Of a stretch of 64,000 nucleotides of DNA, positions 9,091-53,086 are shown piece after piece. A model generated the notes under the pieces. That model ran no database searches. It was not told the DNA's origin and worked only from the letters and a program-made list of their open reading frames with translations. Each line of letters starts with the position of its first letter. Position 1 is the first letter of the stretch. This stretch comes from an uncultured Verrucomicrobiae bacterium (GTDB lineage: Bacteria; Verrucomicrobiota; Verrucomicrobiia; Chthoniobacterales; Chthoniobacteraceae), in contig CAVYKI010000006.1 of NCBI GenBank assembly GCA_963769025.1, forward strand, positions 416,001 to 480,000, read 5' to 3'. The position numbers were made by a program, and so were the translations under genes.

Positions 9091-9739
9091 TCAATCCCTG
9101 CCCATCACCGCAGCGAGGCGCGCGGTTTCCGCCTCGAGTGAGGCTGCGCCGTCCGCGATTTCGAGCGGCGGGAGGAAGGTGAGCCTCACTCTTGCGAATG
9201 GCTTCGGAATCCACAGCGCGTCCCACTTTTTCCCGATCCGCCAGAAGCGATCCATTTCCACCGCCACCGGCACGATGCGAACGTCCGCGTGGCCGGCGAG
9301 ATGGATGATGCCGGGTGCGATGTGGTAGTTCGGACCTCGCGGACCGTCGGGCGTGATCACGATGTCGTTGCCTTCGCTGACGGCGCGGGAGAGTTCCAGC
9401 AGGGCTGCCGCGCCGCGCCGCGAACTCGATCCCCGCACATTGCCCAGCGTGAAGCGCCGTGCCATCGCCGCGAGCCAGCCGCCGTCCTTGCTCGCGCTCG
9501 TGAGCACTTTCACAGGGTGGCAACGCTGCATCGCGCGCCAGTCGGCGAGGATGGAGCCGAGCAGGCGGTTGTGCCAGATGCAGAGGATGACCGGCTTGCG
9601 CGTCCGGTCGTAGAAAGTGCCGTTGTCCTCCCATTTCACGCGCAGCGTCCAGCGCGAGCAGCTTCAGCAGCGACCCGGCGACGAAGGACGCGAGCGTCTG
9701 CAGGAACGTGATTTTGTGGGCGTGGACGGGCTTGGACAC
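9091..9739 (-). CDS. DUF374 lysophospholipid acyltransferase family protein (one apparent frameshift near 9650)
   Basis: WHNRLL, SASKDG, VRGSSSRRG, TPDGPRGP, WD..IPKPF; the N-terminus lies in another frame. Confidence 0.8.
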
Positions 9740-23068: not shown

Positions 23069-23144
23069 GCCTCAGTAGCTCAGTTGGTAGAGCACGTCCT
23101 TGGTAAGGACGAGGTCATCGGTTCAATCCCGATCTGAGGCTCCA
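23069..23144 (+). tRNA. tRNA-Thr(GGT)
   Basis: GCCTCAGTAGCTCAGTTGGTAGAG..CGTCC-TTGGTAA-GGACG..GGTTCAATCC..CTGAGGCTCCA. Confidence 0.97.
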
Positions 23145-23209
23145 TGCCTCCGGCAGGCACCCATTCATAAAAATCCACAACAACAAACAACCACACACAC
23201 CTAACCACC

Positions 23210-24409
23210 ATGGCAAAGGAATCATTCAAGCGCGAAAAACCGCACATGAACGTCGGCACGATCGGCCACGTCGATCACGGCAAGTCCACGCTCGACCGCT
23301 GCGATCGTCCACGTCCAGTCGCTCAAGGGTCTCGCGACCCCGATCAGCTACGCCGACATCACCAAGGGCGGCACCGTCCGTGACGACACCAAGACCGTCA
23401 CCATCGCCGTCTCGCACGTCGAGTACAGCAGCGAAGCCCGCCATTACGCGCACGTCGACTGCCCCGGGCACGCCGACTACGTGAAGAACATGATCACCGG
23501 CGCCGCGCAGATGGACGGTGCGATCCTCGTCGTGTCCGCCGCGGACGGCCCGATGCCGCAGACCCGCGAGCACATCCTCCTCGCCCGCCAGGTCGGCGTG
23601 CCTGCGATCGTCGTCTTCCTGAACAAGGTGGACCTCGTCGAGGACACGGACCTTCTCGAACTCGTCGAGATGGAAATCCGCGACCTGCTCACGAAGTACG
23701 AATTCCCCGGCGACAAGACGCCGATCGTCAAGGGTTCGGCCTCCAAGGCCCTCGCCTGCGGCGATGCGAAGCACGCGGACGCGAACTGCATCGGCGAACT
23801 GCTCGAGGCCGTGGACGCGTTCATCCCGCTCCCCGAGCGCCCGATCGATCAGCCGTTCCTGATGCCCGTCGAGGACGTGTTCAACATTGAAGGTCGTGGC
23901 ACCGTCGTCACCGGCCGTGTCGAGCGCGGCATCCTCAAGAAGATGGAGGAAGTCGAAATCATCGGCATCCGCGACACGCAGAAGACCACCGTCACCGACA
24001 TCGAAATGTTCCGCAAGCTCCTCGACGAGGCGCGCGCAGGTGACAACGTCGGCGTGCTGCTCCGCGGCATCAAGAAGACCGACGTCGAGCGCGGCCAGGT
24101 CTCGCCAAGCCCGGTTCGGTGAAGCCGCACAAGAAGTTCAAGGCCGAGATCTACGTCCTCTCCAAGGACGAGGGTGGCCGTCACACGCCGTTCTTCTCGA
24201 ACTACCGCCCGCAATTCTATTTCCGCACGACGGACGTGACCGGCTCGGTCACGCTCCCGACCGGCGTCGAAATGGTCATGCCCGGCGACAACGTGAGCAT
24301 CGAGGTCGAACTCATCTGCCCCGTGGCGATGGAAAAGACGATGCGCTTCGCCATCCGCGAGGGCGGCAAGACCGTCGGCGCAGGCCGCGTCACCGACATC
24401 ATCGCCTAA
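23210..24409 (+). CDS. tuf: elongation factor Tu (apparent indels near 23294 and 24101)
   Basis: [65 protein letters not shown]. Confidence 0.97.
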
Positions 24410-24430
24410 CGAAACCATTTGCCGATTCAC

Positions 24431-24794: not shown

Positions 24795-25364
24795 ATGACC
24801 GAAGAGCAAAAACGCAAGCAGTGGTATGTCGTCCACGTCCTCTCCGGACAGGAGAAGAAGGTGCACGACAACCTCGTGAAGCGCATCAAAACGGAGGAAA
24901 TGGGCGACTACGTCTACGAGGTCCTGCTGCCCACCGAGCGCGTCTCCGAGGTGAAGCGCGGCAAGAAGACCGAGACCACGCGCAAATTCTTCCCCGGCTA
25001 CATCGTCATGAACATGTGGCTCATCGACGAGAACAAGCAGCTCGTGGACAAGACGTGGTATTTCATCAAGGACACCGCCGGCGTCCTCGGTTTTGCCGGC
25101 ACGAAGGATCGTCCGATCCCGATGCTGCAGAAGGAAGTGGACGCCATGCTCGCGCAGGTCCGCGCCAGCGAGGAAAAGGCCCGCCCGAAGGTCGAATTCA
25201 CGGTCGGCGAGATCGTGAAGGTCGCCGACGGCCCATTCCAGAACCAGACCGGCGTCGTCGAAGAAATCGACCCCGAGCGCGGCAAGCTGCGCGTCAGCGT
25301 CAGCATCTTCGGCCGCGAGACCCCCGTGGACCTCGAATACTGGCAGGTCGAACGCAACGCATAA
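24795..25364 (+). CDS. nusG: transcription factor NusG
   Basis: [23 protein letters not shown] motif [16 protein letters not shown]. Confidence 0.97.
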
Positions 25365-25431
25365 CTTTACGCACTGATCCCAAAACCCGGGCGCTGAAGC
25401 CTCTCTTCGCCCACCAAAAAACACACTCACC

Positions 25432-25858
25432 ATGGCAAAAGAAATCGTCGGTTCAAATCAAACTCCAGATCCCAGCAGGCGCCGCCAACCCCGCACCGCC
25501 GATCGGCCCCGCGCTCGGTCAGCAGGGCGTGAACATCATGGCCTTCTGCAAGGAGTTCAACGCACGCACGGCCAAGCAATCCGGGGACATCCTCCCGGTC
25601 GTCATCACCGTCTTCAAGGACAAGAGCTTCACCTTCATCACCAAGCAGCCCCCGGCGAGCTCGCTGATCAAGAAAGCGCTCAACCTCGCCAGCGGCTCGA
25701 AGGAGCCGAACAAGGTGAAGGTCGGCAAGCTGACCAAGAAGCAGGTCGAGGAAATCGCCAAACGCAAGATGCCCGACCTCAACGCCCGCACCACGGCAGC
25801 CGCGATGAAGATCATCGCCGGCACCGCGCGCCAGATGGGCGTGGAGGTCGAAGCCTAA
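25432..25858 (+). CDS. rplK: 50S ribosomal protein L11 (apparent indel near 25452)
   Basis: [42 protein letters not shown]. Confidence 0.96.
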
Positions 25859-25881
25859 GCGCGAGCGGCCAGACAATCTCG

Positions 25882-25915
25882 AAGGGGGCGGACGAAAGTC
25901 CGCCCCTTTTCGTTT
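25882..25915 (+). terminator. rho-independent terminator after rplK
   Basis: GGGGCGGAC-GAAA-GTCCGCCCC followed by TTTTCGTTT. Confidence 0.85.
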
Positions 25916-26088
25916 ATCAGGTGGGTAGAAGGAACAGCGGGCGCAACTATCAATCCGAGGCTGCTTCCCGTCTGCGGTGGGTGAAATACTATGCAGTGCT
26001 GGCTTGTCTTTTCGGGTTGCGAGTTGCATTTTCGCGATGCCGTATCCGGTGCGTCGGCATCGTGCTGTTTCCATATTCGCCATCTCCC

Positions 26089-29000
26089 ATGCCGAACGAC
26101 CATTCACCCGTGCCCAAGGACTTCAAAGGGGTCATGGTCTCGAGCACGTTCACGGATGTGGAGGATCACCGTGCGGCGCTGATCAAGATCATCAAGGCCC
26201 ATGGGTTGACCGAATTGGCGATGGAGAATGATTCGGCGAAGCCCGATGTCGATGTCATCGAGTCCTCGCTTGGCATGGTCCGGGATGGCGCTGCCTACAT
26301 CGGGATAATCGCAAAGAAATACGGCCAAACGCCCAAGTGCCCGAAGCGCAACTCGGGAAAGGTTTCGATCACCGAATTGGAGTTCGACGAAGCCCAACGG
26401 CTCGATCGGCCCATTCTGCTCTTCATCATGGGAGAAAAGCACCTCGTGCTCGAATCCCAGATCGAGACCAAGGCGGCGAACAAGAGGAAGCTGAACGCCT
26501 TCCGTGAGCGCGCGAAGCAGATGGGGCCGGATTCGGAGGTCCACCGGGTTTACGCCACTTTCAATAGCCTGGAGGAGTTCAAGGAGAAGGCTGCGCAGTC
26601 CGTCGCCGAGTTGCGTCGCTACCTCGACGAGCAGGACGACGCTGAGTCCAAAGCCGACGACATCCCCGACGAGGAGAAGAAAGCCGAGAAACGCGATCCC
26701 GACCCGATCCCGAAGCCGCCCGCATTCTACGCTGAGCCGGCATACCTCGGTTCACACGAGTTCGTCGGGCGGAGGGATCAGTTGGAGACTTTGAATGAAT
26801 GGGCGCTGCCGGCGGACTCGCATCCGGTGCTGCTCTTTGAAGCCATCGGCGGCACGGGCAAGAGCATGCTCACGTGGGAGTGGGTGCGGAAACACGCTCC
26901 CGCGGTGCAGCCGTGGGCGGGGCGCTTCTGGTATTCCTTTTACGAGCGCGGGGCCATCATGGCCGACTTCTGCCAGCGGGCGCTCGCCTACATGACCGGC
27001 CAGCCGCTGGAGGAGTTGCGGAAAAAGAAGACCACCGAACTCGCCCCGCAGCTCCTGCATCAGCTCCAGGCCCGGCCGTGGCTGCTCGTCCTCGATGGCC
27101 TCGAACGCGTGCTCGTGGCCTACCACCGCATCGATGCCGCGCAACTCCGCGACGAGGAAGCGGGCCAGACCGACGAGATCGCCCAGCGCGATGTCTGCGC
27201 CGCCATCCGCCCGGAGGACGACGAACTCCTGCGGCAGCTCGCCGCCGCCGCGCCGTCGAAGCTCCTGCTCACCTCCCGGCTCATTCCCCGCGTGCTGTTG
27301 AATAAAGCCAGCCAGCCCATCCCCGGCGTGCAACGCGTGCCGCTGCCCGGCCTGCGCCCCACCGACGCCGAGGCGCTCTTCGGCGCCTGCGGAGTCACCG
27401 GCGACTCGACCGCCATCCAAGCCTACCTCAAAACGCACTGCGATTGCCACCCGCTCACGATCGGCGTGCTGGCGGGGCTGGTGAAAGACTACCTGCCCGA
27501 CCGCGGAAACTTCGACCGCTGGTCCGCCGACCCCGACGGCGGCGGCCGGCTCAACCTCGCCGAGCTCGATCTCGTCCAAAAGCGCAACCACATCCTGCTC
27601 GCCGCCATCGCCGCGCTGAGCCCGGAAAGCCGCCAGCTCCTGTCAATGGTCGCGCTGCTCTCGGAGGCCGTGGATTACGAAACGCTCAAAGCTCTCAACC
27701 CGCACCTGCCGCCGGAGATCAAGAGGGTATCGGTACCGAAGAAGCCGGAAGACCACTGGCGCTGGAGAATCATGTCCGAAGAGGAAAAAGAGGAGACGAA
27801 GAAGCCATTTGAAACCTCCCTCCAGCGTCGGGCGAAGTATGAGCAGGCGATGGAGGCGCGGCTTCGATCGCCGAAGTTCCTTGCCGCGACGAAGCATCTG
27901 GCGGCGACGATCAAGGACCTCGAAAGCCGCGGCCTGCTGCAATACGACCCGCAGGCAAAGCACTACGACCTCCATCCCGTGGTACGTGGCGTCGCCACGG
28001 GGCAACTCGCGCAGACTGAAAAACAAACCTATGGCCAACGAGTCGTGGATTACTTCTCCTCGAGGCCGCACATTCCGTACGAGAAGACCGAGACGCTTCG
28101 GGATTTGAGCGACGCCCTGCACGTCGTACGCACCCTCGTTCAAATGGGACACTTTCAGGAGGCGTGTGACGCCTATCGAGGTGGCCTTGCGCGTGCGCTC
28201 CTTTTTAATTTGGAAGCGAATGTCGAGGTTGTGGCGTTACTCCGTCCTTTCTTTCCGGCCGGGTGGAACAATCTGCCGCAGCAGATGACTGAGGACGACG
28301 CTGCGTATCTGACGAACGACGCCGCAATCGCGTTGGGCAGACTTGATCAACAATCTGCAGAACTTCTTTGCTATGAAACTGCCATCCGATCGGCTCTGAA
28401 GCGCAAAGATTGGCAACCAGTCTCGGTATACCTGCGGAATTTTTCGGTGACTTACTTTCAGAAAGGCGAACTCGCGAAGGCCGATCGTTACGTGCGATTC
28501 GGGTTGGATCTCGCGCGCCTAACTGATGATGAGGATGAGGTTTTCATGACTCGCTTGCATCTCTTCGAGCAGCTTTCCCATCGGGGTCGTCTGGAAGATG
28601 CCGAGGACGTGTGGCGGTCTCTCGAAAGAATGGGCCTTGATCGCCCCCGTGCGACCTACCGTCGCGACTATGCTGAATTTCACCACGCCTACTCTCGATT
28701 TGAACAAGGTACCTTACGGGAAGACGATCTCGCCGAGACCGAGGGATTGGCTGCCAAGGGCCGGACCCGGCAACTCATCCGGTGGTTGCGGCGGCTCCGA
28801 GGCGAATGGCTAATTCAACGAGGATCATGGGAGCCGGCGGTCGAGAGTCTGCGTGAATCCGTCCAGATGGCCCGCGAAGTCGGGCAGGAAGATCCCCTTG
28901 CTGAGACGCTGCTCGCACTTGCGAAGCTCCAGTTCGGTCAGCTTGCTGAACCACGCCAAGACGCGGAGCAGCTCGGAAACGCATCCTGGATCGCGCGACT

Positions 29001-29331
29001 CGCACTCGCTGAGCTTTGGCTCGCCATCGGAGACCGAGATCAGGCGAAGAAGTATGCGCTCGCTGCTTACCAGCGGGCATGGCACGAAGGAGAGCCGTTC
29101 GTAGATCGCAACCGATTGAACAAATCCCGCGCGCTGCTGGAGCAACTCGGGGCGGAGATTCCGAAGCTGCCGCCTTACGACCCGGCCAAAGATGAAAAGC
29201 TGCCGTGGGAGGATGCTGTGGTGGTCGCCATCGAAGTACTCCGTGCCAAGAAAGCCGCCGAAGCCGCGAAGGAAGCCGCCAAGCCAAAACCAGCAGCCGC
29301 ACCCGAAAAGCCAACCGGCACCGCCCGATGA
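26089..29331 (+). CDS. DUF4062 + STAND P-loop NTPase + helical-repeat (TPR-like) protein, NLR-like
   Basis: VMVSSTFTD..HR..YIGII..YG..SITELEFDEA (DUF4062); FVGR, AIGGTGKS (Walker A), LLVLDGLE (Walker B), LTSR, CHPL, YDLHPVVR; helical C-terminus. Confidence 0.85.
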   Translation: MPNDHSPVPKDFKGVMVSSTFTDVEDHRAALIKIIKAHGLTELAMENDSAKPDVDVIESSLGMVRDGAAYIGIIAKKYGQTPKCPKRNSGKVSITELEFDEAQRLDRPILLFIMGEKHLVLESQIETKAANKRKLNAFRERAKQMGPDSEVHRVYATFNSLEEFKEKAAQSVAELRRYLDEQDDAESKADDIPDEEKKAEKRDPDPIPKPPAFYAEPAYLGSHEFVGRRDQLETLNEWALPADSHPVLLFEAIGGTGKSMLTWEWVRKHAPAVQPWAGRFWYSFYERGAIMADFCQRALAYMTGQPLEELRKKKTTELAPQLLHQLQARPWLLVLDGLERVLVAYHRIDAAQLRDEEAGQTDEIAQRDVCAAIRPEDDELLRQLAAAAPSKLLLTSRLIPRVLLNKASQPIPGVQRVPLPGLRPTDAEALFGACGVTGDSTAIQAYLKTHCDCHPLTIGVLAGLVKDYLPDRGNFDRWSADPDGGGRLNLAELDLVQKRNHILLAAIAALSPESRQLLSMVALLSEAVDYETLKALNPHLPPEIKRVSVPKKPEDHWRWRIMSEEEKEETKKPFETSLQRRAKYEQAMEARLRSPKFLAATKHLAATIKDLESRGLLQYDPQAKHYDLHPVVRGVATGQLAQTEKQTYGQRVVDYFSSRPHIPYEKTETLRDLSDALHVVRTLVQMGHFQEACDAYRGGLARALLFNLEANVEVVALLRPFFPAGWNNLPQQMTEDDAAYLTNDAAIALGRLDQQSAELLCYETAIRSALKRKDWQPVSVYLRNFSVTYFQKGELAKADRYVRFGLDLARLTDDEDEVFMTRLHLFEQLSHRGRLEDAEDVWRSLERMGLDRPRATYRRDYAEFHHAYSRFEQGTLREDDLAETEGLAAKGRTRQLIRWLRRLRGEWLIQRGSWEPAVESLRESVQMAREVGQEDPLAETLLALAKLQFGQLAEPRQDAEQLGNASWIARLALAELWLAIGDRDQAKKYALAAYQRAWHEGEPFVDRNRLNKSRALLEQLGAEIPKLPPYDPAKDEKLPWEDAVVVAIEVLRAKKAAEAAKEAAKPKPAAAPEKPTGTAR

Positions 29332-44810: not shown

Positions 44811-46527
44811 TCACGGGAGCGCTTCGATCTTCAGCCCCTTCACGCGGAGTTCCGCGCCTGTGCCGAGAAGATGGAATGACGGCGAGACGCGGCGGCGGTG
44901 GCGCGGGTCTTCGACATCGAACTCCACATTCCCATCCACGCTCACGGTCAGTTTCCCGCTTTTCCGGAGCACCTCGATGGCATGCCACTTGTCGTCGCCG
45001 AGAGCGCGGGTGCCGGCCTTCACGAGGGCGTCCGTGGCAGCGCGATAGTCCACGAGCGCGATCGCGGACGGTCCGCCGAGGCTGAGCGTGATGCCGTGAA
45101 AGCCCGAGGAATCGCGTTCGCCGCAGAGCACGAGTTCCGCGGCGGCCTTTTCACCGCGGATGCGCACCTGTGCGGAGAGCCTGTAGTCGCCGGAGACCAT
45201 CTCGCTGGTGAGCGAGACCGGCTTGTCCGCGCGTCCGGTGCCGATGAGTTCGCCGTTCTCGACACGCCATCCGTCCCCGCCGGGAATCCAATTGTGCAGA
45301 TCGTTGCCGTTGAAGAAATCGTTCGCGTTCAACTCGGTGACGAGCATCGGCACCTGCTGTTTCTGGCGCAGGTAGAGGAAAAGGTCGCGCACGTCGGGCT
45401 CATGGAGCGGCGTGAGCAGGCCCTCGGGCATCATGCTCAGCGGGCTGACCTCGGTCGATGCGACATCCGCGCGTTGCACCGTGACGACCCCGCCGCCGAG
45501 CGTCTTCAGCGAGATCGCCCGGTCCGTGTCCTCGGTGACGATGCCTGCCACGATCTGTCCGTCCTTCGTCTTCACAAAGGTCTGCTGGTAGTCCTTCCCG
45601 ATGATCGCGTTTGGGTCGAGGATGTTGCTCAGCAGGTATTCGAGATCCTCGAATGCGCCCGGAAGCTCTGGACCGATTTTCCCGCCGGTGCCGAAGAGCG
45701 TGTGGCACGCCGCGCATGCCTGCGCGTAAAGCGCGCGCCCATGCTGCGCATCCGCGCGGAGCACGAGATCGGTGGTGACAAATTCGCGGTACTTCGCGAT
45801 GAGCTTCTGCTTGTCCTCATTGGGTGCCGAGACCGCGCCAAAGTTCTTCGCGAGCCATGCGTCGAGCGCCGCGTCCTTCAATCCCTGGAGCTGCCGTGCG
45901 ATCGGCGCCGTGAGTTCCGCCTTCGGGATCTTCCTGGCCTCGATGGCGGCTATGAAAACCTTCGCGCCAGCGGGTCGCGCGAGCATCGCCTGCATCGCCG
46001 CGCGCCTCTCCGCGCTGTCGAGCTTGGCAAACGCATCCGCGGCAGCCTGCGCGACGCGCGGATCGTCGTAGCCGGTGAGCCCGCGCAACGCGGGTTCCCG
46101 CAGCGGGCCGGGCTGGGTGACGAGTTGCAGCAGCGTGTCCAGCGATGCCGCATCGCGCTGTGCGACGAGCGCATCGAGCGCCTGCTTGCGGGCCGCGATC
46201 GGCGCACTTCGCATCCGTGAGCAGCTTGCGCATCTCGTCGAGCGCGCTGTCGCCGCCGAAAATCGCGGCGAGCGCCTGCGCGTGCGTGCGGACCTGCTCA
46301 TCTGGGCTGTCCTTGAGCTTCGCGTACACCTCGGGCCAGCCCTTCGGCTCCGCGATGCCGCGCTGGCCTTGCAGCGAATCGCGCATGCCCTTGAGGATGC
46401 TCGACTGCGCTGCCGGGACGGCGATTTTCCCGAGCGTGGAGACGAGCAGATCGAGCTTCGAGTTGTCCTGCGCGCCCGCCCCTGCTGCGAGCGCGAGCGC
46501 GATGACGAGAGCGAGCGTGCGCTTCAT
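44811..46527 (-). CDS. HEAT + PVC-type cytochrome c (CxxCH) + DUF1080-like secreted protein (indel near 46210)
   Basis: Signal MKRTLALVIALALAAGAGA, CAACHTLFG.GG.IGPEL, ILDPNA.I, SMMPEGL, FFNGNDL..W.VENGEL. Confidence 0.8.
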
Positions 46528-48335
46528 TTTCCGGCGGCGATGCGGCGCGTGATGAACTCCTGCACCTTCGGAATCTGGCAGCTCGCGAGCAGTTCCGCAG
46601 CCTTTGCGGTGTCGGCGGCGACGGCTGGCTCGGCGGCATACCAGAGCATGAGCGGGAGGTTCTGGTCGGTCGCATCCTCGGCATGCGAGGCGAGTGCGGT
46701 GAGGATGGGCCAGCGGTCGGCGATGGCGATGCGCTGCGCGGCGCTCGCGATGCGGAGGCGCACGAGCGGGCTCTTGTCGTCCTTCGCCAGTCGCGCGAAC
46801 TCGGCGAGCGCCGTCGCGCCGGGCTTGTTGTTTTCGCAAAGCGAGCGTGCATCGCCCAGCCGCGCACGTATTCGCTCTTGGCCGTCAGCGCCTTTAACGC
46901 CGTTGCCTCCGCCAAAGTGCCGCCGCAGTGCAGCGCCCAGAGCGCGCGGAGCTGGCGCGTGTCGTCGGCGTTCTCAAAAAGGATCTTCTCCAGCGCGGCG
47001 GTGCCCTCGGGTTTCAGTCCGCGCTCCTGCAGGATGCGCCGCGCGTGGCGCACGTACCAGTCGTTGGCGTGGAGCTGATACTGCACGAGTTCGGCCTCGC
47101 TCGCCTTCGAAAGGTCCACCTGCACGGGCTTCACGCCGTTCGTCGTGACCTTGTAGATGCGCCCGTTCGTGCGGTCGGTGAACTCGCGCTGCTGATGGCA
47201 CGGCACCTTGTCGTACCAGTCGTTGATGAAGACCGATCCGTCCGGCCCGTACTGCGGTGAGAGCCCGCGGAACCACTTGTCGCCGCTGTCCATGAAATCG
47301 CCATTGCGCTCGCTCTTGTAACCCGAGCCGCTGCGCACGACGCGCTCGTTGCGCTGCTTGTTCATGTGGATGTCGTGGAAGAAAAGCGTGTCGCGCCATT
47401 CCTTCGGGAAGAGGTCGCCGAGATAGACCATCATCCCGCAGTACGCCGCCTTCTCGTAGCGGCCCCAGGCGATCGTCTTGATGTCGTCGTAGGTGTTCGC
47501 ATTCGAAGTGCGGCCCGGCCTGGCGCTGATAGCGCGCGCCCTGGATGCACGTGCCACATGTGCGGGATCACGCACGCGGCGAAGAACGCCTCGCCGTGAT
47601 CGTTCCAGTCGACCCCCCACTGGTTGCTCGCGCCCTCGGCCCATACGCTCGAAGATTCTTCTTCGTCGGATGAAAGCGCCACACGCCGGCATTGATCGCG
47701 CATGCGCTCGGCCTTCGGCGTGCCGGGCTTGCCGACATTCGACAAAGTGAACACGCCGTGCGTGCCGTAGAGCCAGCCGTCGGGCCCCCAGATGAAATCG
47801 TTCAGCGTCTCGTGCGTGTCCTCGTACCCCCAGCCGTCGAGCACCACCTCGGGCTCGCCCGTCGAGCTTGTCCTCGCCATTCTTTCACCGGGAAAAAGAG
47901 GAGGTTCGGCGGAGCGCCCACCCACACGCCGCCGTGGCCGACCGCGATGCCGCTGGCGAAGGTGAGCTTGTCGTAAAAGACCGTGCGCTTGTCCGCGCGC
48001 CCGTCGCCGTTGGTGTCCTCGAAGATGAGGATGCTGTCCTTCGGCTCGCCGGGGCAACGGGGTAGTTCGTGTTCGTCACCACCCACAGCCGCCCGCGGTC
48101 GTCCTGCGTGATAGGCGATCGGCTGCACCACATCCGGCTCGCCGGCGACGACCTGCACTTTGAAACCCGGCGGCAGCTTGAATGCCTTTGCCGTGTCCTC
48201 CGGCGTCATCGACGGCGCGGTTGCCACGGGGCGGCCTTTGTCCTCGAGCGGACTCTTGGGCGGGGCCTTGCCGCCGGGAGGGATTTGGGCGAACGCGGCG
48301 GTGGCGGTGGCGAGGGTGAGGAGGAATGTGCGCAT
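46524..48335 (-). CDS. PVC-type membrane-bound dehydrogenase (beta-propeller + HEAT) protein, paralog A (multiple apparent indels)
   Basis: LPPGFKVQVVAGEPD, EDTNGDGRADKRTVF, DTHETLN..WGPDGWLYG, GPDGSVFINDWYD, DQNLPLMLWYAAE. Confidence 0.8.
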
Positions 48336-48495
48336 TGGGAGTGAAGCAGGATGGCCCGCGGTTTGCGCGGGCCTTAGCCGTGCGATTCATCGGAAACTGC
48401 CAGTGCGAAGTCCAGCCTCCGTCTCATCCGGTGATGTAGCCCGGCTCTTATCGGCTTGCTGGACACCCGCCGCGATCCCCGCCAATGCTCCGCGC

Positions 48496-50983
48496 ATGAA
48501 ACGTCTCCCCGCGCTTTTCTCCGCCGCGCTGCTGCTCGCAGGATCGGTCATTTCCTCGGCCGTGGATTCCATTCCGCCGAAGGCGGAGGACGGGCGGGTG
48601 CTGAACCTCGGCTTCGAGGACGGCACGCTGCGCGACTGGACGGCGTCGGGCGAGGCGTTTGAGAAGCAGCCGGTGAAGGGCGAGATCGATCAGGCGCGGC
48701 CGTTTGGAAAAGGGCGCACGGCGAATCGCAAGGGCGAGTTCTGGATCGGCGGCTACGAGATTTTGCGCGATGACCCGAAGGGCACGCTCACTTCGGCGGC
48801 GTTCAAGGCGGCGCAGCCGTGGGCGAGCTTTCTCATCGGCGGCGGGTCGCTGCCGGGGACGCGCGTGGAGATCGTGACGAAGGACGACGGCAAGGTGTTC
48901 CACACGGCGCGCGGCGTGAACAACGAGACGATGGCGCGCTCGGTCGTGGATTTGCGCAAGCTGCAAGGGCGCGAGATTTTCATCCGCATCGTGGACGAGG
49001 AGACGGTGGGGTGGGGGCATGTGAATTTCGACGACTTCATCTTCCACGCAGAGGAGCCGAAGTTTCCCGCCGAGCAGCTCGCGCAGAAGCCGGGGCCGAA
49101 GATCGATCCGAACTTGAAACCGGACGCGATCGAGTACGCCGGGCTGCCTGCGGAAAAGGCGGCGCAGGTCGCGACGGTGCCGGCGGGATATGAGCTGAAG
49201 GTTTTCGCGGCGGAGCCGGACATCATCAATCCCATCGCGTTCTGCATGGACGACCGCGCGCGCGTGTGGGTCGTCGAGGGCATGACGTATCCGCAGCGCG
49301 CGAAGACGGAGCCGGGCGCGCCGGAGTGGCTGGGTGGGAAGGATCGCATCCTCGTCTTCGAGGACACGGACGGCGACGGGAAGGCGGACAAGCGCACCGT
49401 CTTCATGGAGGGGCTGAATCTCGTGAGCGGGATCGAGGTCGGCTTCGGCGGAGTGTTCGTCGGCGCGGCGCCGAATCTCATTTTCATCCCGGTGGAAAAT
49501 TGGGACGAGCCAAAGCCGGGCAAGGCCGAGGTGCTGCTGAACGGCTGGGGCGGGCAGGACACGCACGAGACGCTGAACACTTTCAAGTGGGGGCCGGACG
49601 GCTGGCTCTACGGCTGCCACGGCGTCTTCACGCACAGCGTCGTGGGCAAGCCGGGCGCGGAGGAAAAGGATCGCGTGAAGCTGAACGCGGGCATCTGGCG
49701 CTGGCAGCCGCAGCGGAAGGAATTCGAGGTGTTCGCGCACGGGACGAGCAATCCGTGGGGGATGGATTGGAATGCGGACGGCGATCTCTTTGCCGAGGCG
49801 TGCGTGATTCCGCACCTCTTCCACATCATCCAGGGCGGGCGCTATCACCGGCAGGCGGGGCAGCATTTCGACCCGCACACTTACGACGACATCAAGACCA
49901 TCGCCGACCACCGGCATTTCCTCGGCGGCGACGCCGCACGCCGGCAACAACCGCAGCGACGCGGCGGGCGGCGGCCACGCGCACGCGGGCCTGTGCATCC
50001 CGCAGCACCCGAGCTGGCCCGACGGCATCCGCGGCAATGTGCTCATGAACAACATCCACGGCGCGCGCATCAACATGGACGTGCTGGAGCGCAAGGGCAG
50101 CGGCTACGTCGCGCACCACGGCGCGGACTTCATCAATTTCCACGACAAGGCGAGCCAGATCGTGGACATCCGCGAAGGCCCCGACGGGACGCTGTGGATG
50201 ATTGACTGGTATGACGTGAACCAATGCCACAACAACCGGCGCGAGGCGCATGATTACACGACGGGGAGGATTTTCCGGCTGGGGAAGAAGGGGCAGAGGT
50301 CGTCAAGGCAGCAGATTGGCAAAATGAATGTTGAGCGAATTGGCGAAGCCGGCATGTGGCGACGCATGACGACGTCTGGGTATCAAAGCGCGCAGTTCGC
50401 ATTCTTCAGGAACGCGCAGTGTCGGTGTCCGAAGTGAAAACTTGTCGGAAATCACTCGCGATACCTACGGAGGATGCCCTAAAGAAAATCAATCCTCGTC
50501 CCGCATACCCCGACGAAACTTCAGATCTGCGTGCGTCTGGCTGCTCTCATTCACAGCCTCGACGAGGCTGATCGGGGAGTTCTTGAAAAGGTCTGCGAAA
50601 GGACCACGCCAAGTTGCTTGATATATTGGCATTCGATTCGGTTTCGCTAGGTGAGTTCATTCGGAATGCCTGCGCAGCAGGCAAAGCCAGCGACGATCTC
50701 CGGGAGCTGCTTCTCTGTTCTTGGAAAGAAGGCGCATTCCCCCATCGTCCGCCTCGCGCTCGCGAGCGCGTGCCAGCGGCTCACGGTCGAGCAGCGCAAG
50801 CCCATCGTCCTCGCGCTGCTCGCGCACGAGGAGGACAAGGACGACCAGAATCTCCCGCTGATGTACTGGTATGCCGCCGAGCCCATCGTCGCCGCCGACC
50901 CCGCCTGGGCCGCCGAGGCGCTCGCCGCGTGCAAGATTCCGAAGCTCACCGAGTTCATCGCACGGCGGATGTCGGAGAAGTAG
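48496..50983 (+). CDS. PVC-type membrane-bound dehydrogenase protein, paralog B, with extra N-terminal beta-sandwich domain (indels near 49935 and in 50295-50720)
   Basis: Signal peptide, NLGFEDGTL..WGHVNFDDF domain, then the same motifs as paralog A; ends DQNLPLMYWYAAE..IARRMSEK*. Confidence 0.8.
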
Positions 50984-51119
50984 CCTCGCCGCCCGGCTTT
51001 CGGCCTGTCCACACGGCAAGTCCATCCTTCCGCTGCACTACCTGAAAAAGGCCCGATTGCGGCATACCGTGGCCAAGCTGGTCTTGCAGAGGTCTTCCCG
51101 CTCGGCCGGGATAGGGATT

Positions 51120-51680
51120 TTCGGACCTGTACGGGGCCACCCGTCTGCCGGATCAGGCGTCTTCCGTCCTGCACAGGGCAGTCCTGCTTGCCGAATCAGT
51201 GTCTTCGGACCTGTACAGGGCCATCCGTTTGCCGGATCTGGCGTCTTCGGACCTGTACGGGGCCACCCGTGCCGGACCAGGGAGTCATTTCGGGCCTGTA
51301 CGGGGCCACCCGTTGCCGGATCAGGTGGGTCTTCGGTCCTGTACGGGGCCATCCGTTTGCCGGATCAGGGGTCTTCGGACCTGTACGGGGCCACCCGGCC
51401 GGGCGGGTAGGCATTTTCCGTCCTGCAAATGGCAGTTCCGCCGACCGGATGGGGGCTTTCCGACCTGTAAGCGGCCATCCTGTCGAGCGGGCGGGCCTTT
51501 CCGTCCTGTAAGAGGCCACCTGGTCAGCCGGGACGCCATTTTCCGACCTGTAAGAGACCGTCCTGCCCAGCGGGCAGGGCTTTCCGTTCTGCAAGGGGCC
51601 ATCCGCTTGCCGGGACAGGGTCTTTCCGACCTGCAAGGGCGCATCCGCCTGCCGGAACAGGGGGTTTCTGGTCTGGACCG
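51120..51680. repeat. degenerate 42-bp tandem repeat array, 13 units plus a partial unit
   Basis: Units start at 51120, 51162, 51204, 51246, 51289, 51332, 51374, 51416, 51458, 51499, 51541, 51582, 51624, 51666; consensus ~TTC(G/C)GACCTGTA(C/A)GGGGCCAYCCGTYTGCCGGATCAGGSGTC. Confidence 0.9.
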
Positions 51681-51886
51681 CACGGGTTGTTCAGGGGCTG
51701 TGAGTGGTGACTGGTGGGAAGTGACTGGTGGATGTGCGGCGACGACGGCCACCATTCACAAGTCGCCAGTCGCGGTCATTGCACGACCGACATTCGTGGC
51801 GCACGCCGAATCTCCGACGCACAGCGTTGACCTTGGCTCGCGTGCTGCTTTTGCTCCGCCCGCGTCGTTTTCGATGCAGCCCAAAC

Positions 51887-53086
51887 ATGCCAGCCCCATA
51901 CTACGATGTGCTTTTCGCCGCGTTCGCCTTCATCCTCGGCGCGAGCATCGGGTCGTTTTTGAATGTGTGCATTTACCGGATGCCGCTGAGGCTCTCGGTG
52001 AACAAGCCGAAGCGGTCGTTTTGCCCGCACTGCAAATATCAAATCCCGTGGCATGCGAATCTGCCGCTGGTGACGTGGATCGTGCAGCGGGGAAAGTGCG
52101 GGAACTGCGGGGCGCCGATCGCCGTGCGTTACGTGCTGGTGGAGCTGCTCACGGGGCTGCTTTTCCTCGGCGCGTGGCAGCGGATCATGCAGCTCTCGGT
52201 GGGGCAGACGGCGGATGCGTGGGTGCTGGCGCTGCCGCTGTTCACGTTCATCGCGCTGCTGGTGGTGGCGACGTTCATCGACTTCGAGCACTACATCATC
52301 CCGGATGAAATCACGCTCGGCGGCGCGGTCGCGGGTGTGCTTTTCAGCGCGGCGCTGCCGCTGCTGCAGGACCGGATCGGCGACGCGGGAATCGGCGACG
52401 GGCTGCTCGCGGGGCTGCCTTTCCTGCACGACAAGGCGAGCCATGTGTGGGGGCTGGTGATGTCGCTCGCGGGCGCGGGCGCGGGCTTCGGGCTGCTGTG
52501 GCTGGTGAGTGTGCTGGGGAAGATGGCGTTTGGAAAAAAGACGCTGGAGTGGAAGGAGCCGCAGGCGTTCACGTGGCGGCTCGCGGACGAGCGCGCGAAG
52601 CTGACGGTGGGCACGGAGGAGATGTGGTGGGATGAGCTTTTCTCGACGGAGAAGGACTGGATGGTGATGGACTGCGCGCGGCTGGAATTCGACGGGAAGG
52701 CGCGGGAGAATTTCGAGCTGCGCTCGCAATACGAACGGCTGGAGATCGACGGTGCGTCGCACGATCTGAACAAGGTGACGGAGTTCACGGGCACGGTGAG
52801 GCGCATGACGTTCAAGCGCGATGCGATGGGATTTGGCGACGTGAAGTTCATGGCGTGCATCGGGGCGTTCCTCGGGTGGAAGGCGATCCTTTTCACGGTG
52901 ATGTCGGCGTCGGTGATCGGGGCGTTCGTGGGGATACTGACCATCGCGATCGGACGTCGCGAATGGTCGGCGAAGATTCCGTTCGGCCCATACCTTTCGC
53001 TCGGGGCGCTGCTGTGGCTTTTCGCGGGGCCGGAATTGCTGTCGCTGTGGGTGGCATTCGCCGGCGGGGAGACGGAATACCGGTAG
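51887..53086 (+). CDS. pilD: prepilin peptidase (A24)
   Basis: GSFLNVCIYRMP, SFCPHC..GKCGNC, FIDFEHYIIPD, MGFGDVKFMA, IPFGPYL. Confidence 0.92.
   Translation: MPAPYYDVLFAAFAFILGASIGSFLNVCIYRMPLRLSVNKPKRSFCPHCKYQIPWHANLPLVTWIVQRGKCGNCGAPIAVRYVLVELLTGLLFLGAWQRIMQLSVGQTADAWVLALPLFTFIALLVVATFIDFEHYIIPDEITLGGAVAGVLFSAALPLLQDRIGDAGIGDGLLAGLPFLHDKASHVWGLVMSLAGAGAGFGLLWLVSVLGKMAFGKKTLEWKEPQAFTWRLADERAKLTVGTEEMWWDELFSTEKDWMVMDCARLEFDGKARENFELRSQYERLEIDGASHDLNKVTEFTGTVRRMTFKRDAMGFGDVKFMACIGAFLGWKAILFTVMSASVIGAFVGILTIAIGRREWSAKIPFGPYLSLGALLWLFAGPELLSLWVAFAGGETEYR

Follow-up and report, generated by a model that had tools for sequence, protein, structure and literature searches.

In HsdS of type I restriction systems, the target-recognition domains are discrete variable modules of ~150 amino acids (aa), with conserved bounds that act as recombination sites and with swapping of the modules creating specificities. 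In the pilE/pilS, vlsE, and msp2 systems, gene conversion from silent cassettes replaces the expressed central cassette between conserved flanks, and in the Rhs/CdiA polymorphic toxins C-terminal swapping occurs, with displaced orphan modules. Flagellin genes exchange alleles and show a lower central GC content. With respect to flagellin FliC, hypervariable central D2/D3 domains lie between conserved D0/D1 termini, as outlined in one preprint (bioRxiv 10.1101/2024.12.02.626473). Here, gene B ("paralog B"; 48499..50983, + strand) in a 64-kb stretch of contig CAVYKI010000006.1 of an uncultured Verrucomicrobiae bacterium—this whole stretch being termed the window below—was analyzed for a segment (50297..50737, + strand) that is 441 nt long in the window and 432 nt (144 codons) long in the intact allele of the related locus L007, with a GC content of 0.535. 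This segment is probably, with a probability of roughly 0.7, an allelic hypervariable cassette in an otherwise strongly conserved Chthoniobacterales gene, exchanged by homologous recombination.

Gene B encodes a putatively secreted PVC-type DUF7133/TIGR02604 protein and is broken by frameshifts as assembled, according to its translations and to matches with Pfam PF23500. The order of its parts is an N-terminal signal-like peptide (MKRLPALFSAALLLAGSVISSA, read from the sequence), a beta-sandwich, a beta-propeller, and a C-terminal helical repeat. The part coding for the DUF7133 beta-propeller (49153..50290, + strand; Pfam match) ends just 5′ of the cassette, with PF23500 matching residues 347–595 of the open reading frame (ORF) 48115–50202 and residues 23–161 of ORF 49808–50434 (E 1e-48 and 1.6e-12 for the window pieces of gene B). 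TIGR02604 was matched by the intact related proteins P0004 (E 1e-106) and P0003 (E 1e-101), and the scores of P0004—356 bits against TIGR02604, with a cut-off of 122, and 216 bits against PF23500—place it under the family's beta-propeller model; its DUF7133 domain ends at residue 629, directly 5′ of the segment. In the AlphaFold (AF2) model of P0004, with a mean predicted local distance difference test score (pLDDT) of 81, the propeller resembles pyrroloquinoline quinone-type soluble sugar dehydrogenases in the PDB (template modeling scores of 0.5–0.63 on the target). The PVC-type family takes its NCBI name from a CxxCH cytochrome c domain. Longer family relatives bear the cytochrome domain PF13442, which the gene B subfamily lacks, and no C-terminal CxxCH cytochrome c domain was found by domain search in gene B, P0003, P0004, or P0100. 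On the basis of sequence, the source organism of the window is placed in the Chthoniobacterales (Verrucomicrobiota), with the nearest loci (L001–L008) showing 83–89% protein identity. A relative was encoded in 166 of 215 pattern matches, and the best 80 of them served as relatives' loci; the ortholog proteins P0003–P0040 (n = 38, each with both flanks) were drawn from the best 120 of 5546 protein matches.

Some orthologs also carry a coiled-coil insertion of 150–291 codons in a loop of the propeller, at an optional site corresponding to 49659..49682 (+ strand) of the window, which is itself without it. The carriers are L005 (7174–8046), L006 (7168–7617), and L007 (7153–7614) and the proteins P0003, P0005, P0010, P0011, P0012, and P0013. 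This loop insert is variable too, with 28–45% aa identity between some of its copies and 90% between those of P0003 and P0005. Its GC3 (G+C at third codon positions) is reduced to 0.66–0.73, making it a second variable, lower-GC3 module of gene B orthologs.

Along gene B, GC3 drops from ~0.9 to ~0.5 in the cassette. The edges defined by ortholog alignment lie at 50296|50297, after ...GGGCAG, and at 50737|50738, before TCCCCCATCG; a preliminary description of this DNA had set the bounds at 50290–50737, within 7 bases of these edges. Its hand count of codons ending in A or T proved exact as well (29/58 at 50362–50535 and 2/58 at 50738–50911), and the corresponding counts elsewhere in gene B are 4/81 (50738–50980), 9/120 (49937–50296), and 57/474 (48499–49920). 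In 150-nt windows, the GC content is 0.52–0.56 over 50200–50749 and 0.61–0.74 to either side. Of the 20 merged low-GC stretches of the 64 kb, none is longer than this one; 57 of 1277 such windows fall below 0.56, and the overall GC content is 0.642. The same description had held that the segment encodes the homologous HEAT region and is not a foreign insertion, and that it is dense in indels, as a consensus built from heterogeneous reads would be. Indeed, DDVWVSKRAVRILQER matches DWYVRHARRILQER of paralog A and SPIVRLALASA matches SPLVRLRIASA; the view that no foreign insertion is involved was borne out; and 6 insertion events relative to L007 were counted in a MAFFT alignment (8–11 gap events with BLAST), with stops in all three frames. 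On the right, the cassette is followed by the conserved 3′ end of gene B (50738..50983, + strand; 81 codons plus the stop), the putative right-hand recombination flank, with a GC3 of ~0.95 and 90–95% nucleotide identity among relatives.

An alignment of orthologs, which bears directly on the earlier observation, recovered the same low-GC3, in-frame segment in all five complete orthologs (L002, L004, L005, L006, and L007, from metagenome-assembled genomes (MAGs) of Chthoniobacterales), where it spans 129–145 codons without a stop. In these five, GC3 is 0.52–0.59 in the segment, 0.79–0.88 upstream, and 0.89–0.95 downstream (segment versus flank, Fisher p 4e-13 to 2e-20), with GC1 and GC2 of the segment, that is, G+C at the first and second codon positions, near the flank values. 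The segment of L009, a distant ortholog of the hypervariable type, has a GC3 of 0.55. At the same position, relatives with a canonical HEAT region keep a normal GC3, namely 0.90 in L015, 0.77 in L019, 0.80 in L029, 0.81 in L041, and 0.87 in L061.

The divergence of the segment is extreme. Among the window and L001–L007, nucleotide identity is 91.5–98.2% over the 600 nt upstream and 90–95% over the 243 nt downstream, versus 40–47% in the segment, for which a shuffle control gave a mean of 40% and a maximum of 43%; the sole exception is the pair of the window and L007, at 82.9%. Alleles range from 387 to 435 nt in segment length and differ at all bases. Divergence at fourfold degenerate sites is 7–18% in the flanks and 14–29% in the N-terminal part, and at comparable flank divergence segment identity is either ~83% or random. 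A flank divergence of 7–18% at fourfold sites cannot yield saturation of the segment, so that drift in place does not account for it. At the protein level, the 66 pairs with flanks 94–97% identical have a median segment identity of 24%, and among pairs of similar flank identity a few have related segments and most lie at the baseline. Single-linkage clustering at ≥40% segment identity resolved 25 allele families among the 38 ortholog proteins, and 14 among the 22 orthologs with flanks at least 90% identical to those of P0004.

Weak conservation between alleles is confined to the first ~38 codons of the cassette (50297..50410, + strand), which encode the first helical hairpin with the motif D-W-x-x-R-x-A-x-R-x-L-Q-E-R and fit the family consensus DEWxxRHARRLLQER. 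In 199 pairs of unrelated alleles, identity is 35.0% over the first 38 aa and 19.0% over the remaining ~100 aa; shuffled sequences gave 18.4 ± 2.6%. The AF2 models of P0004 and P0007, whose alleles are unrelated, show helical hairpins throughout the segment, with block-mean pLDDT values of ~48–65 in mid-segment in P0004 and a single block at 53 in P0007. These models suggest that the fold class is kept though the sequence is not, and the hairpins are predicted to continue a HEAT-like solenoid; no Pfam HEAT match was found for P0004 or P0003. In a sister group (L011–L014 and P0041–P0048), an Ala/Pro-rich linker of 30–32 residues replaces the whole cassette between the same conserved flanks, so the cassette sequence is not essential. 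As a separate observation, the frame ends at the same mid-cassette point, after ...RASS, in L001 (2486–2906), P0049, and P0050. In L001, this stop is followed by ~175 nt unrelated to the full allele of P0006 and then by the contig end; it may represent an insertion or rearrangement breakpoint, or a break in the assembly graph.

Comparisons of individual pairs show alleles to be discordant with their backbones. Over 333 N-terminal aa, P0007 and P0018 share 99.7% identity; both are without the loop insert and, up to GRIFRLG, they differ by a few substitutions and a single loop insertion of 7 aa. Their segments are 25% identical and their last 81 aa 89%. This pair looks like the product of a recent replacement, judging from the sequences, with its left breakpoint at the cassette edge. 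P0003 and P0005 show 95% identity in the N-terminus, 90% in the loop insert, and 98.8% in the last 81 aa, versus 24% in the segment. Between P0003 and P0004, by contrast, the segment is 85% identical, with the N-terminus at 86%, the last 81 aa at 93.8%, and the loop insert present in one and absent in the other. The window's allele is found in at least three backbones, namely those of the window, P0004 (N-terminus 89% identical to that of the window), and L007/P0003, and a 116-aa gene fragment, P0124, bears its last quarter. Segments that are 100% identical were found in P0018, P0019, P0021, and P0031, which are four cluster representatives, and in P0006 and P0020, with flanks 95–100% identical. 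In a maximum-likelihood backbone tree built from the 1686 columns upstream of the cassette, the window groups with L001, and a clade of L002, L005, and L006 (100/100) carries three unrelated alleles; the approximately unbiased (AU) test rejects a backbone clade of the window with L007 (p = 0.0127). The two marks of a mosaic gene were both found: near-identical flanks around an unalignable center, and a distribution of alleles that is incongruent with the backbone phylogeny.

In two orthologs, a partial copy of the conserved gene B 3′ end stands a few hundred bases past the intact gene, at 9693–9806 of L005 (94% identical to 50870–50983 of the window) and at 9112–9199 of L007 (78% identical to 50821–50908). 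These duplicates are footprints of past 3′-end replacement. They consist of conserved 3′-end sequence only, and no alternative cassette was found in them.

According to the proposed mechanism, the cassette encodes ~130–145 residues that are predicted to form alpha-helical hairpins, placed after the beta-propeller and ahead of the conserved C-terminal helices. Many old allele lineages, mutually unalignable, are present in the population and the clade, and these pass between gene backbones. The evidence points to homologous recombination whose crossovers fall in conserved DNA to the left and right of the cassette; such crossovers would explain its sharp edges. Within an allele lineage, purifying selection on the cassette appears relaxed and its rate of change close to the usual neutral one, without hypermutation. 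The differences within the shared allele appear to follow this pattern, that is, relaxed purifying selection at a roughly neutral rate. Frequency-dependent or diversifying selection acting on a binding surface, and not neutrality alone, may maintain the diversity.

Several points weigh against this reading or against parts of it. The data are also compatible with a neutral import of diverged alleles, in place of balancing or diversifying selection. The group to which the AU test was applied had been set by allele sharing, but after the pairwise identities had been seen. The rate comparison at the DNA level is that of one allele pair, the window and L007, of which the window member carries sequencing errors that inflate the counts: differences at codon positions 1, 2, and 3 amount to 14.6%, 13.2%, and 23.6% in the segment (fourfold sites, 11/60), 4.5%, 5.0%, and 15.0% in the upstream flank (9/77), and 7.4%, 3.7%, and 7.4% in the downstream flank (4/42). 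Fourfold divergence in this pair is 18% in the segment (11/60) versus 11% in the flanks (13/119), so that a modest rise in rate is possible. Some reduction in GC3 is also seen in two canonical-HEAT relatives, L021 (0.72) and L022 (0.63), and flank GC3 is not cleanly elevated beside the cassette edges, the contrast between flanks and the rest of the gene being confounded by the low-GC3 coiled-coil insert. Furthermore, 6 indel events fall in the 441-nt segment of the window versus one in 1.7 kb of gene B upstream, for which uniform noise is insufficient.

Identical alleles in diverged backbones, together with no clear synonymous excess, support exchange by homologous recombination and not hypermutation. 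Locally targeted hypermutation, in which a mutator—resembling that of diversity-generating retroelements (DGRs) or other—randomizes the segment in place and selection keeps frame and fold, is highly improbable. It would accord with flanks up to 98.2% identical beside segments at shuffle level, with sharp edges and a GC3 near non-coding composition, and with differences within the shared allele that are ~2–3 times the flank values at all codon positions. Opposed to this are the identical segments in differing backbones, the occurrence of the window's allele in L007, which is distant in backbone, but not in L001–L004, which are closer, differences between alleles at all bases and in length rather than at adenines alone, and the absence of a large excess at fourfold sites (11/60 versus 13/119). 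Moreover, as already remarked in the preliminary description, neither a reverse transcriptase nor a template repeat lies in the window: no reverse-transcriptase domain was found in its 121 ORF translations (37 + 84), and when six segments were used to look for a template repeat or silent copy by sensitive BLASTN in the window and 80 loci, the only matches were self-hits and that between the window and L007. Of the two readings offered in that description, cassette swapping is supported, with alleles contradicting the backbone tree, and hypermutation is not, given the fourfold counts and the identical segments of four cluster representatives; its interpretation as a whole is partly supported. 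A DGR target gene was rejected, with no reverse transcriptase found in the 64 kb, no ~90% template repeat there or at the orthologous loci, variation not confined to adenines, and a length that is not fixed, and Rfam gave no match at E ≤ 0.1 on 48000–52000. A system like pilE/pilS or vlsE, in which silent donor cassettes elsewhere in the genome feed programmed gene conversion, is unlikely, if somewhat less so than hypermutation. Replacement of whole cassettes with breakpoints at conserved flanks is what it would produce, partial 3′-end duplicates stand downstream in L005 and L007, and the DNA inspected for silent copies comprised 64 kb of the window genome and ±6 kb (~13 kb) around each of five orthologs. 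In that DNA, no silent copy was found, the downstream duplicates hold the conserved 3′ end only, and protein searches for near-full-length and shorter matches found no stand-alone cassette ORF, the sole short match being the 116-aa fragment.

Pure relaxed constraint, with a dispensable linker drifting neutrally in each lineage and without exchange, is just as improbable as hypermutation. The ratio of differences at positions 1+2 to those at position 3, ~0.6 in the segment versus ~0.3 upstream, would follow from it, as would the Ala/Pro-rich linker that replaces the region in L011–L014 and P0041–P0048 and the existence of a gene B subfamily without its relatives' cytochrome c domain. It does not accommodate the low fourfold divergence of the flanks, the split of segment identities, by which at equal flank divergence a few pairs are related and most lie at shuffle level, the unrelated segments of P0007 and P0018, or the incongruence of the backbone tree with allele sharing. 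In addition, the frame stays open over 129–145 codons at ~53% GC in 5/5 orthologs, and drift alone leaves the lost GC3 bias in a translated region unexplained. The least probable account, hardly to be credited, is an assembly artefact—a chimeric or noisy consensus in the window—or a single recent low-GC import. The many indel errors in the window assembly, dense in the segment, and the several short contigs that end inside or just after it are what an artefact would leave; the same low-GC3 in-frame segment in five separately named MAG records, its presence in 38 database proteins, and the intact window allele in L007 and P0004 are not. Replacement from a distant donor, which the preliminary description had entertained, did not hold in the form of a single low-GC foreign donor: the low GC3 belongs to every allele and not to this one alone, and no donor-like relative of the segment was found among 1.84 billion representative proteins, phages, or plasmids. 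With the L007 segment, an intact copy of the window's allele, tblastn gave no match in phage and plasmid collections, and phmmer against these representatives gave one match, P0123 (E 1e-6), which was judged spurious as a relative, being a repetitive, adhesin-like protein in which a 20-residue stretch matched 11 times. Word-indexed searches with the segment alone matched only P0004, P0003, and the fragment P0124.

A polymorphic toxin or immunity module was likewise rejected, the variable part being internal and helical and the downstream gene in the window being that of a prepilin peptidase. The gene downstream of the L002 and L005 copies is a different ORF, hydrolase-like as read by eye.

As for the cause of the low GC3, the value in the cassette is roughly that of non-coding composition, with an intergenic GC content of 0.59 (range 0.50–0.65) when pooled from 12 roughly hand-delimited stretches. 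A recent low-GC donor is unlikely because the low GC3 occurs in all alleles and lineages and no observed relative has a flank GC3 so low, and translational selection alone is insufficient since the cassette is translated together with codons of GC3 ~0.9. These considerations suggest that the force driving third positions to ~0.9 G+C elsewhere is not acting in the cassette. GC-biased gene conversion (gBGC) is the favored candidate for the contrast, with weak selection blunted by linkage as the alternative. gBGC needs heteroduplex between similar alleles, and would therefore be absent from a cassette whose alleles are unalignable. Across bacteria, the GC content of genes rises with recombination, as outlined by Lassalle et al. 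(2015; PMC4450053). On a stronger form of the exchange reading, the cassette would be a dedicated diversity module: a structurally constant surface of three to four hairpins on a secreted, enzyme-like protein, with dozens of mutually unalignable alleles kept across Chthoniobacterales by negative frequency-dependent selection (for example, in phage, predator, or partner recognition) and perhaps fed by silent cassettes elsewhere in the genome, in which case the collapse of GC3 would be direct evidence of biased gene conversion. This form is tentative and on balance rather unlikely; if it were true, the high GC3 of these genomes (~0.9) would be due to biased gene conversion that depends on recombination and not to selection on codons.

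The indels of the window's copy bear on how its broken frame is to be read. The MAFFT alignment of the window segment with L007 contains 6 insertions, five of 1 nt and one of 4 nt (net +9), and outside the cassette gene B has a single-base insertion at 49927 (+ strand), the same +1 being seen at 49926–49928 relative to L001–L007. Paralog A has ~11 +1 insertions between 46843 and 48111, and the EF-Tu gene of the window (23100–24410), the single one, in a tRNA-Thr/tuf/tRNA-Trp context, has two frameshifts. The inserted bases lie outside homopolymers, and L007 and P0004 carry the window's allele in intact form. Given the frameshifts in EF-Tu as well, the segment indels are most likely assembly errors and not pseudogenization; with an assembly that is indel-noisy in patches, frameshifted genes here are not to be called pseudogenes. 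The clustering of indels in the cassette would fit failed polishing where several alleles coexist, although this is a guess. Short contigs that end within or just past the segment are L001, L003, P0049, P0050, and P0052.

With respect to the neighborhood, paralog A (46527..48335, − strand) is divergent to gene B and has a canonical HEAT region with normal GC3 and no variable hole, in addition to its many +1 insertions; it aligns contiguously to L005 and L020 at ~85%, again without a hole. The gene directly after it (44814–46523, − strand) has cytochrome c and 3-keto-disaccharide hydrolase (DUF1080-like) domains, and the heme part in the lineage of paralog A appears to be a separate downstream ORF, gene B having none. 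Downstream of gene B lies a tandem array of 41–42-nt units (51109..51662), with a folding z-score of −1.9, which is not convincing; orthologs have arrays of 21/42-nt period at the same place with unrelated sequences (L007 9192–9686; L004 8539–8802). Farther away, a 1317-codon open frame with a DUF4062 domain (25378–29328, + strand) follows nusG and rplK, a position at which further ribosomal-protein genes would presumably be expected, and low-GC stretches lie near it at 25351–26500 and 28201–28600.

Exchange of cassette alleles by homologous recombination would have consequences beyond this gene. In the five orthologous MAG records, it offers a natural contrast on what keeps GC3 high in high-GC bacteria, with ~0.9 where alleles can recombine and ~0.55 where they cannot, within one translated gene. 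It would also assign a population-level, recognition-type polymorphism to a so far unstudied family of proteins from Verrucomicrobia that abound in soil and fresh water, and this points to an interaction partner; full-text searching, by titles and the starts of abstracts, found no description of a hypervariable segment in the TIGR02604/DUF7133/PVC-type family. Such cassettes break short-read assemblies and appear to escape polishing, and frameshifts in them are not evidence of a pseudogene.

Among known systems, the DGR variable regions share with the cassette a sharply bounded, diversified stretch in a conserved protein scaffold, but here no reverse transcriptase or template was found in the DNA inspected, the variation is not limited to adenines, and the segment varies in length, lies inside the gene, and is predicted to fold into helices. 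The Rhs/CdiA toxins resemble it in the sharp demarcation after a conserved motif and in the partial duplicated gene ends downstream in two orthologs; unlike in these toxins, the variable part sits inside the protein, ahead of a conserved C-terminus of 81 residues, there is no toxin domain or conserved immunity-like gene, and the downstream genes vary. The pilE/pilS, vlsE, and msp2 systems differ in that no donor cassettes occur in the inspected DNA and that alleles are shared between lineages here, and alleles common to different lineages fit exchange between cells rather than within a genome. With HsdS, the cassette has in common a discrete module bounded by conserved sequence and the swapping of whole modules, although it comprises one module and not two, Pfam and NCBIfam give DUF7133/TIGR02604 only, and no methylase or restriction partner genes lie nearby. 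The likeness to flagellin extends to the conserved–hypervariable–conserved layout, the many unalignable alleles, the apparent exchange via conserved flanks, and the atypical central composition, with the difference that flagellin is a filament subunit, whereas gene B encodes a secreted, enzyme-like beta-propeller/HEAT protein with a helical variable part of ~140 aa. Overall, the comparison suggests that the layout and behavior of gene B match those of mosaic genes whose central region is allelic, flagellin and HsdS among them, and that it would be a new example of this kind rather than a new mutation machine.

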